This document shows positions 497 to 17,739 of a stretch of 64,000 nt of DNA, in pieces. The translations under genes and the position numbers were made by a program. This DNA comes from Thermoanaerobaculia bacterium. GTDB taxonomy: Bacteria > Acidobacteriota > Thermoanaerobaculia > Multivoradales > Multivoraceae. The DNA is taken from contig OY761158.1 in the NCBI GenBank assembly GCA_963664405.1, positions 5,472,001-5,536,000 on the forward strand, read 5' to 3'. The stretch's first letter is position 1. The number at the start of each line of letters is the position of its first letter. Under the pieces are notes generated by a model. That model was not told the DNA's origin. It did not search any database and saw only the letters and a list, made by a program, of their open reading frames with translations.

Positions 497-3214
497 TCAG
501 TCGGTGGGCACGAGGCGCTCGAGCTCTTCGAACCAATTGGTGACTAGCGTAACGTGGTCGGTTCCGTAGGAGTCCGTAGCGGCCGGGAACACGACGAAAC
601 GCCGTCCGTCACCGGCTACGTCGAAGCCAGGGTATGGCTCCCCCGCGAGGATCGGTACCAGCAGGTAGCCCTCGTCGAGAACGGCCTCCGCTATGCCGGG
701 ACGGAGGACCCCGTTGCCCTCTTTCACAAGGACCCTCGCAATATGGGACCCGGTACCGAAAAAGAGCGCGCGACCATCGGCCGACCACTTCGGATACCTG
801 CCTCCGTTCGTCGAGATCATTACTCGCCCAGCTCCGTCGGGAAAGGGTCGGACGTAGATCTGGAAGATCCCCGATACGTCCGACTCATAAGCTATCCAGC
901 GACCGTCGGGCGAGAACATGCCCATACTCTCGTTGGCCTGCGTGTCAAGGAAAGCATAGGGCTCGCTTTGGCCGTCCAACGGGAGAATCCAGACGTCCTC
1001 GTCGACGACGTCTAGCTTGGCTCTGCCGTAGGCGAGAAATCGACCGTCGGGGCTGTAGGAGGAGGGGAAGACGCTGTGGGCGCCCCCGATCAGCGTTTCG
1101 ATCTCTCCCGATCCGTCGGCTCGCGTCTCATAGATGGCGTTTCTCTGGTTGCGCTCGGAGTTGAAGGCCAGCGTCTCGCCGTCGGGCGACCAGGCCACGT
1201 CGTCGTCTCGCGCAGAGTCGTCGGTCAGCCTAGTCTCGGTGCCGCGCTCCAGGTCGTAGACCCAGATGTCGACGTTGCCATCGCGGAGCTCGGTCACGGC
1301 GAGTCGCGACCCGTCCGGCGACAACTGCGGCGAGCCGTAGAGCCCCGGCGACAAGAGCGGTGTGTCGTCTCCCCGCAGATCGACCCACACCGCTGGAAAC
1401 TTCTGCTCCTCCGCTCCGCCGCTCAAGTAGACAAGGGACCCGGAGTCGGAAAGGTCGTAGCCGGAGTTCTCGATGTTGTGCAGGGTGAGGACGTTCGACT
1501 GGATGGGCCCAAAAACTCCGGATTGGATGGGGACAGCTGACCCCTTAGTTGTGAGCTCTTTCAGGTCGAAGGCTACGGCGAAGAGATCTTCGCCCGCGCG
1601 AAATACCAGTTGGCCTGTGGGGAGGTAACGGCCATGAGATCCGTTGGCGCGAACAACGCTTCTCTCCCGAGTTTGCAGGTTCAAGGCCTCGATGCTCGAC
1701 GGACCCGAGGATCCCTGCCACGTTGTGAAGGAAGTAAACAGGAGCGCTTTGCCCCCTGGGAGCAGTTGAGGTGAACGGTGGGTGTGCTCGCCCTCGGCGA
1801 GCTCAGTCATCAATTCGGGCTCGCCTCCGTTTGCGGAAACTCGGACCAAGCCGCCCGGGGGGCGAGCGTTGAAGACGATCGTTCCGTCGCGGGTCCAGGT
1901 GCCCGTCGACCAGCTACTCGCCGCAGTCACAGTCTGCGGTGCGCCGCCGCTCACCTGAACCTTGCGTAGCTCCGAGTCGGTGAAGAAGGCGACCCAGTCT
2001 CCATCCGGAGAGAAGAAGGGCTGGAAAACGGATCCGGAGGCGAGTAGTCTGCCCTCCAACTGGTCGAGTTGGCGCACGTAGAGCTCTCGAGTCGGCGCGC
2101 CGTCGGCCGAAGGTCTGTGCACCACATAGGCAAGGTCGCACCCGTCTGGGGACAGCACGGCATCAAGGACAGCGCCGCCGTCGGCCTCGGCGATTTTGAC
2201 GTCCAGATGGAGACTCGGACCCATTGGTGCCGACGGGCGATTCACCAGCCAGGCGAGTGTTGCAAGAGTGACTACGGTCACGACGCCGAGAGCAGCGACC
2301 ATGGGAGTCGAGCGCCAGAGAGCTGTCGTCGGCAACGAGTTTGCCAGTCCATCGGCCCCGGGCTTCTGAAGCAAGAGCCGAGCGTCGGCAATGTCGTGTA
2401 GCCGATCGCGCCTCTTCTTGGCCAGACAGAGTTGGAGCAGACTCTTCATTGAAGAAGGTACGTCGGCGGGCAGGGAGTCGAGCTCGGGGTCGTCCCGAAG
2501 CACCGCTGCCAGGGTATTAGGAGCATCCTCACCTTGGAAGGCGCGCTTTCCCGAGAGAGCCTCGAAGAGGCAGACTCCGAACGCCCAGATGTCAGCTCTC
2601 TCGTCGACTGTCTTGCCGGAGGCCTGCTCGGGTGCCATATACGCCGCTGTGCCGAGGATCTCGCCGCGCTGCGTCGCCGCCAGCGTCAGAGTAGGCGACT
2701 GTGACTGACCCGGAGCGGCGGGCTCCTGCGGCGGAGCCATCGCCTTGGCCAGCCCGAAATCGAGGATCTTGACGTTGCCGTCTTCCGAAACCTTGATATT
2801 CGCAGGCTTGAGGTCGCGATGGATGACGCCCTTCTCGTGGGCTGCTTCCAGGCCCTCCGCGATCTGGAGAAACAGCGGTAGAGCTTCGTCGACGGGTATC
2901 GTGCCTCTCTTGATGCGCTCGGCGAGTGTCTCGCCTTCGACCAACTCCATGACAAGGAAGCTAGTGTCCCCTTCCTTCTCGAAGCCGTAGAGCGTGGCGA
3001 TGTTGTTGTGATTCAGTGAGGCGAGGAAGCGAGCTTCACGCTCGAAGCGCGCCAGCCGATCAGGATCTTTGGAGACCTCATCGAGAAGCAGCTTGATTGC
3101 CACCTCGCGACCGAGCTTCGTGTCCTTGGCTCGATACACTTCTCCCATGCCTCCTGCGCCTAGCGAGGAGACCACTTCGTAGTGGCCGAGGCGAGTGCCA
3201 GCTTCTAGCGCCAT
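497..3214 (-). CDS. Ser/Thr protein kinase with TM helix and C-terminal TolB-like/PD40 beta-propeller
   Basis: GAGGMGEVY, VAIK, HRDLKPAN, DFG and APE motifs; repeated SPDG motifs; start placed at MALEAGTRLG. Confidence 0.93.
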   Translation of the reverse strand: MALEAGTRLGHYEVVSSLGAGGMGEVYRAKDTKLGREVAIKLLLDEVSKDPDRLARFEREARFLASLNHNNIATLYGFEKEGDTSFLVMELVEGETLAERIKRGTIPVDEALPLFLQIAEGLEAAHEKGVIHRDLKPANIKVSEDGNVKILDFGLAKAMAPPQEPAAPGQSQSPTLTLAATQRGEILGTAAYMAPEQASGKTVDERADIWAFGVCLFEALSGKRAFQGEDAPNTLAAVLRDDPELDSLPADVPSSMKSLLQLCLAKKRRDRLHDIADARLLLQKPGADGLANSLPTTALWRSTPMVAALGVVTVVTLATLAWLVNRPSAPMGPSLHLDVKIAEADGGAVLDAVLSPDGCDLAYVVHRPSADGAPTRELYVRQLDQLEGRLLASGSVFQPFFSPDGDWVAFFTDSELRKVQVSGGAPQTVTAASSWSTGTWTRDGTIVFNARPPGGLVRVSANGGEPELMTELAEGEHTHRSPQLLPGGKALLFTSFTTWQGSSGPSSIEALNLQTRERSVVRANGSHGRYLPTGQLVFRAGEDLFAVAFDLKELTTKGSAVPIQSGVFGPIQSNVLTLHNIENSGYDLSDSGSLVYLSGGAEEQKFPAVWVDLRGDDTPLLSPGLYGSPQLSPDGSRLAVTELRDGNVDIWVYDLERGTETRLTDDSARDDDVAWSPDGETLAFNSERNQRNAIYETRADGSGEIETLIGGAHSVFPSSYSPDGRFLAYGRAKLDVVDEDVWILPLDGQSEPYAFLDTQANESMGMFSPDGRWIAYESDVSGIFQIYVRPFPDGAGRVMISTNGGRYPKWSADGRALFFGTGSHIARVLVKEGNGVLRPGIAEAVLDEGYLLVPILAGEPYPGFDVAGDGRRFVVFPAATDSYGTDHVTLVTNWFEELERLVPTD

Positions 3215-15087: not shown

Positions 15088-15762
15088 ATGGATCCGTTAA
15101 ACGAAGAGGAATTGGCCGGCTTGCGCGCGTGGCCCACGCCGGCAATCTGCAACGCGATCGAGACCTTCGATGTTCGCCCTCGAAGCGAGGGCTTCATGTT
15201 GGGCATCCGTTGCTGCTTTCCCGGTTTCGAGCCGTTGGTGGGGTATGCGGCGACCGCGACCATGCGAGCGTCAAAGGCGGCCAGCGATGCAGATCTCGGT
15301 GCCGCATTTCGTCACTGGGACAACATTCTCGCCACGCCGACTCCCCGGGTTGCAGTGATCCAGGATTTGGACGACCCTCCCGCTTTCGGCTCGCTATGGG
15401 GAGAGGTGAACGCCAACATCCACACCGCGCTGGGCTGCAAGGGCGTGATCACCAATGGCGGAGTTCGTGACCTCGATGAGGTCGAAGAGCTCGGCTTTCA
15501 CTTCTTCGCCGCCGAGGTCATCCCTTCGCACGCCTATGTGCACCTCGTCGATGCCGGAGCTCCTGTCGAAGTTGGCGGTATTCGAGTTTCGAGCGGCGAC
15601 CTGATGCATGCCGACAAGCATGGCGTGACGGCGATTCCGCATGAGATCGCCCGCGAGGTCGCTGCCGCCTGTCAACGGGTCGAAGACGGTGAGCGCCGAG
15701 TCATCAACTACTGCAAATCGGCCGACTTCGACGTCGAGAGGCTCAAGACCAGGGATTTCTAG
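15088..15762 (+). CDS. RraA/HMG-aldolase family protein
   Basis: TPAICNAIE, WGEV, TNGGVRD, GDLMHADKHGV; strong GAGGAGG RBS. Confidence 0.88.
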   Translation: MDPLNEEELAGLRAWPTPAICNAIETFDVRPRSEGFMLGIRCCFPGFEPLVGYAATATMRASKAASDADLGAAFRHWDNILATPTPRVAVIQDLDDPPAFGSLWGEVNANIHTALGCKGVITNGGVRDLDEVEELGFHFFAAEVIPSHAYVHLVDAGAPVEVGGIRVSSGDLMHADKHGVTAIPHEIAREVAAACQRVEDGERRVINYCKSADFDVERLKTRDF

Positions 15763-15789
15763 CCCGCTAGGAGCGTGTATCTGGACTCC

Positions 15790-16060
15790 CGTGTCAAGTA
15801 GTTGATTTCAACTCATAGAGAGATTCTGGTTTTCTCGGTCTTCGGGCTGAGAGTGGTAGGTCAGACAGCAGACGTATCTCCGGCCTCAGATTGGCGTGAC
15901 GATGTGTGCACGCCGGGCCATGATGGAAAAGTGCGCGTGAGGGAGCCGAATCGTCCGAGAAAACGGCCTCGAGGGCCAACGCTCCTAGCGGCTTGTGCCC
16001 TCACGCCAGTCTGACTGGAAACCATCAAAGTCCTTGGATCGAGCTGTGAGTGGATGGGGG
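15790..16060 (-). ncRNA. Predicted bridge RNA/seekRNA of the IS1111-group element
   Basis: Two stem-closed internal loops; the guide segments match the target flanks (CUAGGAGCGU, UUCUCGGAC) and the element ends (UUCCAUCAU, AGAUAC); RNA boundaries not determinable. Confidence 0.75.
15792..15797 (-). promoter_or_regulatory. Outward-facing -35 hexamer (TTGACA) inside the IS right end; probable circle-junction promoter half
   Basis: Perfect TTGACA 14 nt from the element end; typical IS1111-group arrangement. Confidence 0.6.
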
Positions 16061-16090
16061 TTACGAGTAGGTTGTGGTCGTTCGGTCGTC

Positions 16091-17128
16091 TTAGGCAGCA
16101 GCGAGCAACGGCTTGGGCTCGAAGGCGCGCTTACGGGTCCACACGGCCCAGACAATGCGGGCCAACTTGTTGGCGAGGGCAACGGCGGCTTTGTTGGGTC
16201 CTCGGCGGGTATCGACGTGCAGCGCCCACTGTTGGAGGCGGCCTTGGGGTTGTTTTCTCTTCGCCCACGACAGCACGGAGCGGGCCCCGTGGATCAGGAG
16301 CGTGCGCAGATAGCCGTCGCCGCGTTTGCTGATGCGTCCGAGCCAGCGTCGTGCGCCACTGGAGTGTTCGCGCGGCGTGAGCCCGAGATAGCTGGCAAGA
16401 TGGCGTCCGCTCTTGAAGCGAGAGACATCTCCGATCCAGGCCACCAGGGCCGTGGCGGTCAGGACCCCGATGCCAGGAATGGTCATCAGCAGCTGCACGG
16501 CTTCGAGCTGTTTGGCGAGCGCTTGGATGTGGTTGTCGATCTCCGCGATACGCTCGTGGAACTGCTCGATCTGATCGCATTGCGCTGCGAAGTGAGGGCG
16601 CAATGCCATGGGGATGTCCGTCTCGGCGTCGGCGATCAGCTCTCGGACCCTCGGCACGACGCGCGCACGTCCTAGAGGGATGAAGTGTCCGAATTCTCGC
16701 AAGTGCCCGCGTAGAGCGTTGCAGTGAGCCGTACGATCGCCGATGTAGGCCGCGCGCATCCGATGCAGAGTGGTGAGCGTTTGTTGCTCGAGCGACTTGA
16801 CAGGGACAGGCAGGATGTCTTCGTTGCGATACGCCTCGAGCATGCCTTTGGTGTCGGTTCGATCGGTCTTGTGGGCGCCGACATAGCGGTGGGTCAGGTG
16901 GGGTGGCAGCAGGACGACCGAGTGGCCGAGCTCTCCTATTTCCCGGCCCCAGTAGTGCGCGGAGCCACAGGCCTCCATGACCACCGTCGTGGGCTTGCGT
17001 TGTGCGAAGAAAGACAAAAAGCCAGCTCTTCGGACTCGATGCCGGTCCGCCACCTTTCCCGGCTCATGCGACACGGCGATCTCGAACACATCCTTGGCCA
17101 GGTCGACACCGATAACGGTATGCTTCAT
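16091..17128 (-). CDS. IS110 family transposase/recombinase (DEDD + Transposase_20 domains)
   Basis: IGVDLAK, VMEACG, KTDRTD, PGIG, LGLTPREHSSG, ALANKLARI motifs. Confidence 0.95.
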   Translation of the reverse strand: MKHTVIGVDLAKDVFEIAVSHEPGKVADRHRVRRAGFLSFFAQRKPTTVVMEACGSAHYWGREIGELGHSVVLLPPHLTHRYVGAHKTDRTDTKGMLEAYRNEDILPVPVKSLEQQTLTTLHRMRAAYIGDRTAHCNALRGHLREFGHFIPLGRARVVPRVRELIADAETDIPMALRPHFAAQCDQIEQFHERIAEIDNHIQALAKQLEAVQLLMTIPGIGVLTATALVAWIGDVSRFKSGRHLASYLGLTPREHSSGARRWLGRISKRGDGYLRTLLIHGARSVLSWAKRKQPQGRLQQWALHVDTRRGPNKAAVALANKLARIVWAVWTRKRAFEPKPLLAAA

Positions 17129-17259
17129 GGGGCTCCCTTCCAGTACTAGAGTTTCGGTTTGGGCGACCCGCGGCACACAGATGCCGATCGAAGTCGCCAG
17201 GGAGTCCATTTCATCATCCGAGAATTCGGACGGGCGAGTAGTTCTTAGGGGGGGATGGG

Positions 17260-17291
17260 CCGGAGAACGGGCCGGAGGCCCGTTTTCCGGG
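17260..17291. terminator. GC-rich hairpin downstream of the CusF-like gene
   Basis: CCGGAGAACGGGCC-GGA-GGCCCGTTTTCCGG. Confidence 0.5.
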
Positions 17292-17292
17292 G

Positions 17293-17739
17293 CTAGGAGC
17301 CGCCGAGGTCGAGCTCGGTCGTGTCGGGAAGCTTCACGATCTTCGTCACCCGAGCCTCGGGCTCTGCGTGCCAGTCCACTTCGAGAGTGAAGGCGATGGT
17401 GTCGAGAGCGTTGAGCTCCTCGGTGGTCGCGTCTGGCTCGCGAAGGAAGCTCATGGTCATCGAGCTCATCCCGACGATCTCGCCGGACGAGTTGGCGAAA
17501 TCTGGGATGGACTCATGAAAAATGCTGATCTCATCTCCGGGGGCTCCCGGGTCGATGACCTGCCCTCGAAGCTCGTAGCTTCGCGCTCCATTCGCGGGCT
17601 CTACAGCCTGCGGCTCGGCAGCAGGAGCCTCAGCAAGTGCGACTGCCTGCTCCGCCGGCGGGCCTGCACATGCGGCCAATGCGATGACAAGACCTAGACG
17701 AAACCAGCTTCGTGTTGCTTGGGCAATGGGGCTAGCCAC
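17293..17739 (-). CDS. CusF-like copper-binding lipoprotein
   Basis: Lipobox LAAC; YELRGQV, ISIFHESIPDF, MSSMTMSF. Confidence 0.75.
   Translation of the reverse strand: MASPIAQATRSWFRLGLVIALAACAGPPAEQAVALAEAPAAEPQAVEPANGARSYELRGQVIDPGAPGDEISIFHESIPDFANSSGEIVGMSSMTMSFLREPDATTEELNALDTIAFTLEVDWHAEPEARVTKIVKLPDTTELDLGGS

Follow-up and report, generated by a model that had tools for sequence, protein, structure and literature searches.

How does a mobile element choose the point at which it inserts? The question is raised by a locus in a 64,000-nucleotide stretch of the genome of a Thermoanaerobaculia bacterium (GCA_963664405.1, contig OY761158.1, positions 5,472,001 to 5,536,000; this whole stretch is called the window, and positions refer to it unless another record is named). 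Positions 15778-17217 of its minus strand are occupied by a complete insertion sequence of 1440 bp that belongs to the IS110 family, IS1111 group. We consider it very probable, judging from the sequence, that a structured RNA of about 165 nt, encoded in the 3' non-coding region of this complete element, programmes the insertion site. A preliminary description of the window had proposed an RNA-guided recombinase of the IS110/IS1111 kind with a target of about 19 bp, and this proposal is supported by the family matches of the transposase, the specificity of the site and the joint variation of guides and flanks in related elements.

The insertion sequence and its target site

The ends of the element were set by comparing its copies with each other and with the uninterrupted site. 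The host genome (G000, a single contig of 6.78 Mb) was searched with the sequence 15778-17217. It contains one further full copy (B), 100% identical to the window copy (A), a third copy (C) disrupted by other insertions, three copies of a paralog (R) that is 71% identical to A, and one more relative (paralog S) with 66% identity to A. An identical copy of the element, including a 100% identical transposase gene, is present at locus L010 of another assembly, whose record is titled "Acidobacteriota bacterium".

The two halves of the site flank the window copy as follows.

15767-15777, plus strand: CTAGGAGCGTG, the left half-site, which is the right target when viewed in transposase orientation; the same 11 nt are present at copies A, B, C and L010 and at the three R copies
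17218-17224, plus strand: right half of the target site, CCGAGAA, which opens the short palindrome of a repeat unit

The site consists of CTAGGAGCGTG, a single T and CCGAGAA, and the 19 contiguous bp apparently read by the guides are CTAGGAGCGTGTCCGAGAA on the plus strand. The T can be assigned to either end of the element, and the inserted length is 1439 bp. Four independent insertions of the identical element (A, B, C with its detached end, and L010) are bordered by CTAGGAGCGTG at one end and by CCGAG(A/T)A at the other, while their surroundings are unrelated apart from these half-sites. The left half-site is common to A, B, C and L010, and the right one is common to A, B, fragment 7 and L010. 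The three copies of paralog R are inserted at exactly the same point as A. Altogether, seven junction pairs fall at one site and have one shared base, with no multi-base target duplication. The empty site reconstructed in the preliminary description proved to be exact: its 19-mer occurs uninterrupted in 35 exact copies in the same genome (61 for the 17-mer, none for the reversed control pattern).

Two families of intergenic repeats, with units of 87 nt and about 128 nt, have this target as their opening 19 nt. Being the head of an intergenic repeat, the target gives the element dozens of harmless landing sites. The two families have only their first 26 nt or so in common; their units form head-to-tail arrays, often right after stop codons, at window positions 17217-17300 and in about 60 places in G000 (e.g., 2160030-2160370). 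The 87-nt unit ends in a terminator-like hairpin, and Rfam contains no match for the repeat unit in the window.

The coding part and the termini of the element include the following features.

16091-17128, minus strand: transposase gene, 345 aa from the ATG at 17128
15782-15790: right-end arm of the subterminal inverted repeat, TGGACTCCC, 9 nt, located 4 nt from the tip and 100% complementary to the other arm
17200-17208: left-end arm of the same repeat, GGGAGTCCA, 9 nt, located 9 nt from the tip, likewise 100% complementary to 15782-15790

The open frame begins further upstream, at 17209, and is 372 aa long. Since the matches of homologs start at residues 24-32 of this frame in most loci, the ATG at 17128 is the likely start, and the longer frame is probably not used. 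The transposase matches the Pfam families PF01548 (DEDD_Tnp_IS110, E 1.2e-13) and PF02371 (Transposase_20, E 1e-28), and scores 337 bits against the NCBIfam model NF033542, "IS110 family RNA-guided transposase", which has a cut-off of 140. Its C-terminal domain aligns with that of the IS621 transposase (PDB 8wt6, E 8.6e-10), the Ser-Gly of its motif GLTPREHSSG being aligned on the Ser-Gly of the IS621 enzyme. The closest transposase homolog outside L010 has 60% protein identity among the best 80 of 347 homolog loci.

Members of the IS1111 group are described as having transposases of 330-350 aa with the motif GL-P----S(t)G, which includes the catalytic Ser-Gly (PMC11187229), and subterminal inverted repeats of 7-17 bp (PMC11208160). 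The element has the DEDD and PF02371 domains, the Ser-Gly motif, a transposase of this length, subterminal repeats and a long 3' non-coding region: 313 nt (15778-16090) lie downstream of the transposase gene and 89 nt (17129-17217) on its 5' side. By these sequence features it is a member of the IS1111 group of the IS110 family. A perfect 13-nt inverted match was also noticed between positions 16687-16699 of the transposase gene (codons REFGH) and the palindrome of the right flank (17219-17231). It is probably due to chance, there being three mismatches at the corresponding position of paralog R.

The open frame, the motifs and the identical copies argue for an intact element which has apparently been active recently. 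Near-identical sequences of it are present in sequencing runs of nine studies. In one of these runs, X14 (marine sediment), a single contig carries a near-identical element with 4 differences in 968 nt, and its flank joins the element two bases closer (window 15775-15778), which may be an assembly effect or a variant site. An insert of 1849 bp splits copy C (G000:C1 6023784-6026844); it has perfect terminal inverted repeats of 25 bp and is accompanied by the 5-bp duplication CTCTC. The final 233 bp of this copy are located 38.9 kb away, at G000:C1 5984689-5984921, and the break has no duplication, which points to a second large insertion or to a rearrangement.

A conserved non-coding RNA and its guides

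The 3' non-coding region of the element contains a conserved block with the following parts.

15863-16027, minus strand: conserved RNA block of about 165 nt (long seekRNA or bridge RNA) with a 5' hairpin, a target loop, a donor loop and a 3' tail
16006-16018, minus strand: 5' hairpin, CCAGU-CAG-ACUGG
15935-16006, minus strand: target-binding loop with an outer stem (15935-15943/15998-16006) and an inner stem (15944-15948/15989-15993)
15979-15988, minus strand: guide 1 (equivalent of the right target guide), RNA CUAGGAGCGU, complementary to the top strand, in transposase orientation, of the flank 15767-15776
15964-15978, minus strand: hairpin UGGCC-CUCGA-GGCCG, which separates the guides and recurs in folds of the region
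15953-15961, minus strand: guide 2 (equivalent of the left target guide), RNA UUCUCGGAC, of the same sense as the top strand, in transposase orientation, across the insertion point; it would pair with the bottom strand

The stems, the hairpin and both guide-flank matches had been pointed out in the preliminary description, and all of them are present; the outer stem is 9 nt long and 100% complementary. The 64-kb window contains the 10-mer of guide 1, CTAGGAGCGT, at exactly two places, in the flank (15767-15776, plus strand) and in the loop (15979-15988, minus strand), while 0.05 matches are expected by chance and none of 100 shuffles reached two. Guide 2, which reads GTCCGAGAA on the plus strand, corresponds to G15777, one T and CCGAGAA (17218-17224), so the 9-nt match to the junction and the right flank also stands; the 9-mer taken alone is uninformative in the window (1 match vs. 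1.05 expected). The match of guide 1 had been given as 13 nt, counting stem bases. It does extend over 13 nt at the window copy (15764-15776 vs. 15979-15991), but the three extra bases differ in the other copies (flanks ..CAAC, ..GGGG, and ..GAGC). The meaningful match therefore has 10 nt, and its extension is a coincidence of one copy. The two guides, of 10 and 9 nt, address one DNA strand each, and the top-strand match is located 5' of the bottom-strand match.

Between the right end and the conserved block, at 15829-15838, guide 2 recurs as a perfect inverted copy of 10 nt. In a longer transcript this copy could mask guide 2, but it is not conserved in paralog R and so is probably a chance occurrence.

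In the alignment of A with R, positions 15863-16027 are the only conserved part of the 3' non-coding region. Paralog S keeps the block as well, with compensatory changes in the 5' hairpin (A-U to G-C), in the outer stem of the first loop and in the hairpin of the second loop. A covariance model, R1, was built from the sequences of A, R and S with a structure drawn by hand and applied to the best 80 of the 347 homolog loci. It found the RNA at 66 of the 80 loci at E<=1 and at 62 of them at E<=0.001. The matches lie on the same strand as the transposase, and they begin some 45-165 nt beyond the point where the transposase match ends. The 14 loci with no R1 match are L015-17, L022, L030, L033, L037, L042, L047, L048, L053, L057, L063, and L079; the record of L015 stops just past the transposase match, without downstream DNA. 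This clade of RNA and transposase occurs in records labelled Longimicrobiales, Alphaproteobacteria, Vibrio and others.

In the R1-based alignment, 83.5% of the cells are paired, compared with 26-45% when the partners are slid, and none of 500 shuffles reached the observed values. Both sides have changed in 29 of the 33 pairs: in 5/5 pairs of helix 1 (the 5' hairpin), 8/8 of helix 2 and 5/5 of helix 3 (the stems of the target loop), 4/4 of helix 4 (the hairpin between the guides) and 7/11 of helices 5 and 6 (the donor loop), in which 83% and 90% of the cells are paired. An independent RNAalifold run and slid controls agree on the main stems. G-U pairs are frequent, which indicates that the transcribed strand is the transposase strand. 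In G000, the model gives seven RNA matches, all of them within the seven element copies, and the RNA was found in 3 of 150 other sampled genomes of the phylum (19 candidates scored per genome).

The model also brought up some unusual arrangements. At L041 (Longimicrobiales), an element of this clade is nested in the donor loop of the RNA of another such element (coordinates 1294-1420 and 1421-2810); this insertion would disable the RNA of the host element. L019 and L024 have a second R1 match (2763-2917, minus strand) just downstream of the first one and on the opposite strand, which suggests two clade elements inserted tail to tail. The target-loop hairpin with a U-run scores as terminator-like, but a terminator was rejected, with one site found vs. 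1.3 expected and a U-run that is not conserved in R.

If the loop strands act as guides, they can be expected to change together with the flanks. For guide 1, we compared 13 further guide families that were picked before their flanks were seen: the closest relatives, one multi-copy family and nine families from the R1 match list. The columns of the loop strands vary between families while the scaffold is kept. Ten of the 13 families have a contiguous match of 6-10 nt between guide 1 and the flank at the right end: 10 nt in L011/12/14, 9 nt in L068 and L018, 8 nt in L062, L051, and L043, 7 nt in paralog S (L008) and L065, and 6 nt in L013 and L072. L062 and L051 differ by one guide base, and the corresponding flank base is different too. 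A motif search in six loci found the motif in the loop and at the junction, with 0.00-0.24 matches expected and 0-2 of 200 shuffles reaching the observed count. Guide 2 matches the left-end flank over 5-7 nt in L013, L062, L051, L068, L043, L065, and two of the three F1 insertions. Paralog R, which has the same target as A, keeps the guides (9 of 10 nt and 6 nt) despite the divergence of the surrounding non-coding region.

The preliminary description had asked for a covariance model of the homologous 3' non-coding regions and for a comparison of flanks, naming identical guides at unrelated sites as the result that would speak against it. All copies with identical guides are at the same site. 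Relatives with other guides are at other, matching sites, with the exception of L032, L089, and part of F1.

Paralog S (L008:1150-2450; G000:C1 ~592000-593300) has an intact RNA and a different guide 1 that matches its own flank. There is no copy of the subterminal repeat motif GGAGTCCA anywhere in L008 and no clear start codon was seen, and the left end of the paralog appears to be missing. For the empty site predicted for S, G000 contains one match, with one mismatch, which is about chance level by estimate, and no uninterrupted copy; S looks like a decaying single copy.

The second loop of the RNA, at about 15874-15925, has the following parts.

15920-15925, minus strand: 5' guide of the donor loop, CAUCAU, complementary to the opening bases of the left end (ATGATG when read in transposase sense)
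15882-15919, minus strand: donor-loop scaffold with the stem GGCC/GGCC (15882-15885/15916-15919) and a hairpin (15893-15914), supported by covariation
15874-15879, minus strand: 3' guide of the donor loop, AGAUAC, which has the sense of the right end (...CCAGATA) extended by the C that follows it

With moderate confidence, we interpret this sequence as a donor loop that reads the joined ends of the element. In four other variants of the right end, the 3' guide has changed accordingly (ACAUAC, AUAGAC, AUAGAU, and AUAUAU), and the 5' guide fits the left end in L013 (7 nt) and F1. Joining of the ends would also bring together two promoter-like motifs.

15792-15797, minus strand: TTGACA, a -35-like motif that faces outwards at the right end and is conserved in paralogs R and S
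17208-17216, minus strand: TGATGAAAT, an extended -10-like motif in transposase sense, 17 nt from TTGACA once the ends are joined (counted by eye)

The hexamer of TGATGAAAT does not have the usual A at position 2 and fails the rule of the promoter scanner. We infer that the two motifs form a candidate circle-junction promoter. In ISEc11, the only promoter is the one formed in the circle, according to PMC11187229.

Proposed mechanism and alternative explanations

The mechanism proposed here starts from the anatomy of the element, its site specificity, the complementarity of guides and flanks, the conservation of the RNA and the guide-flank covariation in relatives, all of which are observed. 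Binding of the RNA by the protein, a circular intermediate, a junction promoter driving both transposase and RNA, and the reaction chemistry are taken over, by analogy, from ISEc11, ISPa11, ISKpn4, and IS621. The transposase, a DEDD/Ser recombinase, would bind the RNA. On the right of the crossover, guide 1 (5' strand of the target loop) would pair with one of the DNA strands; guide 2 (3' strand of the loop) would pair with the other, on the left of the crossover and across it. The donor loop would hold the joined ends, with CAUCAU pairing with the left end and AGAUAC matching the right end. The RNA-bound recombinase would then recombine an excised circular copy with the target by strand exchange. 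The element would end up between ...GCGTG and CCGAG..., where one T is shared and nothing longer is duplicated.

Several observations weigh against this mechanism. Comparisons of guides and flanks in relatives were read by eye, and they include failures and partial matches: no guide-flank match in L032, 5+3 nt around a mismatch for guide 1 of L089, and, in F1, 7 nt at one of three independent insertions with 4 and 3 nt at the others. Guide 2 has only 3 contiguous matching nt in L018 and only 3-4 nt in L011/12/14, a group whose members have a palindromic element in common as left flank. Between clades, guide 1 shifts its register by 1 nt with respect to the tip of the element; guide 1 of the window element stops two bases short of the shared junction base, and its equivalent in L011/12/14 reaches one base further. 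No two-base core can be defined, as the junction dinucleotides differ between left and right and between clades. The donor-guide matches at the window element have 6 nt each and are weak alone, and the 5' donor guide is clear only in the window element's own clade and in F1, with a partial or weak fit in the Longimicrobiales clade. As for the RNA itself, the alignment used for counting pairs was fitted to the model, which favours the structure; the folding energy is unexceptional (z-scores of -0.75 and -1.48 for the entire non-coding region and the block, respectively); and Rfam 15 gave no matches at E<=1 on either strand of 15500-17500. A promoter scan of the linear element found none. RNA-library data yielded one contig, which covers 15767-15869 only and does not show expression of the RNA. 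In addition, four sequencing runs compared with the element contained no joints, hence no circles and no empty sites.

The promoter and RNA-library results are also what would be seen if the element, though rightly identified, were a fossil that is immobile and does not produce its RNA, and the breakage of one copy by other insertions would fit such a state as well. We regard this as unlikely. Two full copies that are 100% identical occupy different sites of one genome, and a further identical copy occupies a fourth site in another assembly; the frame is open and retains the DEDD-family and Ser-Gly motifs, and near-identical sequences recur in the runs of the nine studies mentioned above.

A different possibility is that the protein alone recognises the head of the repeat, e.g., by its short palindrome, and that the complementarity of the RNA is incidental or only regulatory. 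Palindromic repeats are a kind of structure recognised by proteins, and paralog R uses the same site with weaker guide matches of 9 and 6 nt. Nevertheless, relatives with different loops are found at different sites that match their own loops, and RNA guidance has been demonstrated experimentally for this transposase family (PMC11187229; PMC11208160), which makes recognition by the protein alone very improbable. Least probable of all is that the guide-like stretches are a functionless scar derived from a piece of the target repeat that the element acquired: abundant as this repeat is in the genome, and although a further inverted copy of guide 2 exists at 15829-15838, the two stretches lie on opposite strands with a conserved hairpin between them, and so are not a captured copy of the target, they are framed by stems with compensatory changes, and the same architecture with different sequences is present in other genomes.

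Insertion guided by the RNA of the element is the reading we retain, and it leads to a more speculative consideration. A, R and S coexist in one genome with nearly identical ends and donor loops and with separate target loops. Conceivably, though we would not expect it, the three lineages (S being decayed) draw on a common pool, so that the RNA of any one can aim the excised circle of any other. The choice of target would in that case be a property of the RNA pool of the cell, not of a single element, and the role of a landing pad for the pool may be the reason why two repeat families, unrelated in other respects, retain a common 19-nt head. On the same speculative reading, 19 contiguous bp would be unusually long natural addressing for this class of enzymes.

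Comparison with known systems

Bridge RNAs have been predicted in 93% of the catalogued IS1111 elements, according to PMC11208160, so the mechanism is not new, and the known mechanism is unchanged by our findings. What is new, at the level of sequence, is the orthologue itself, its repeat target, the base-level map and a model for an RNA clade that has no Rfam match. An enzyme-RNA pair is added whose RNA, both loops, ends and natural 19-bp target are mapped to the base, and such orthologues are raw material for programmable DNA insertion tools. As R1 recognises the RNA beside most of the homologous transposases, in several phyla, the clade could be annotated systematically. The genome also provides a natural comparison: two diverged lineages keep guides for one target, and a third has changed guide 1, which matches its flank.

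The closest counterparts of the element are ISEc11, ISPa11, ISKpn4, and ISPst6 as described in PMC11187229. It shares with them a DEDD transposase that is about 340 aa long and carries the GL-P----SG motif and, with IS1111 seekRNA elements generally, the long non-coding region downstream of the gene, the subterminal inverted repeats and an RNA of about 150 nt with a unit of about 80 nt, in which the top-strand match is located 5' of the bottom-strand match. The same source gives this guide order as the reverse of that in IS110-type RNAs. Like ISPa11, which targets REP, the element has a repeat as its target, and like ISKpn4, ISPst6, and ISPa25, it is an example of two diverged elements that have one target and keep the same guides (PMC11187229). 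It differs from these four counterparts in target sequence and host and in being known from sequence alone. While the target of ISEc11/ISXne4 is given as 13 bp in PMC11187229, the guides here abut instead of overlapping and correspond to 19 contiguous bp.

The bridge RNA of IS621, as described in PMC11208160, resembles the RNA of the window element in having two internal loops, one for the target and one for the joined ends, and one guide per DNA strand; the recombinases are related in their C-terminal domains. The RNA of IS621 differs in being encoded upstream of the gene, within the left end, and in having its guides in the reverse order. A CT core is part of all four pairings of IS621 (PMC11208160), whereas here there is one shared base, the plus-strand T, located outside guide 1. 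Finally, ISPpu9/Ssr9 of Pseudomonas putida likewise belongs to the IS110 family, is inserted in repetitive extragenic sequences and has, downstream of its transposase, a gene for a small RNA (PMC12288879). Solo copies of the RNA are reported from that genome in the same source; in the genome studied here, the RNA occurs in element copies in seven cases out of seven.

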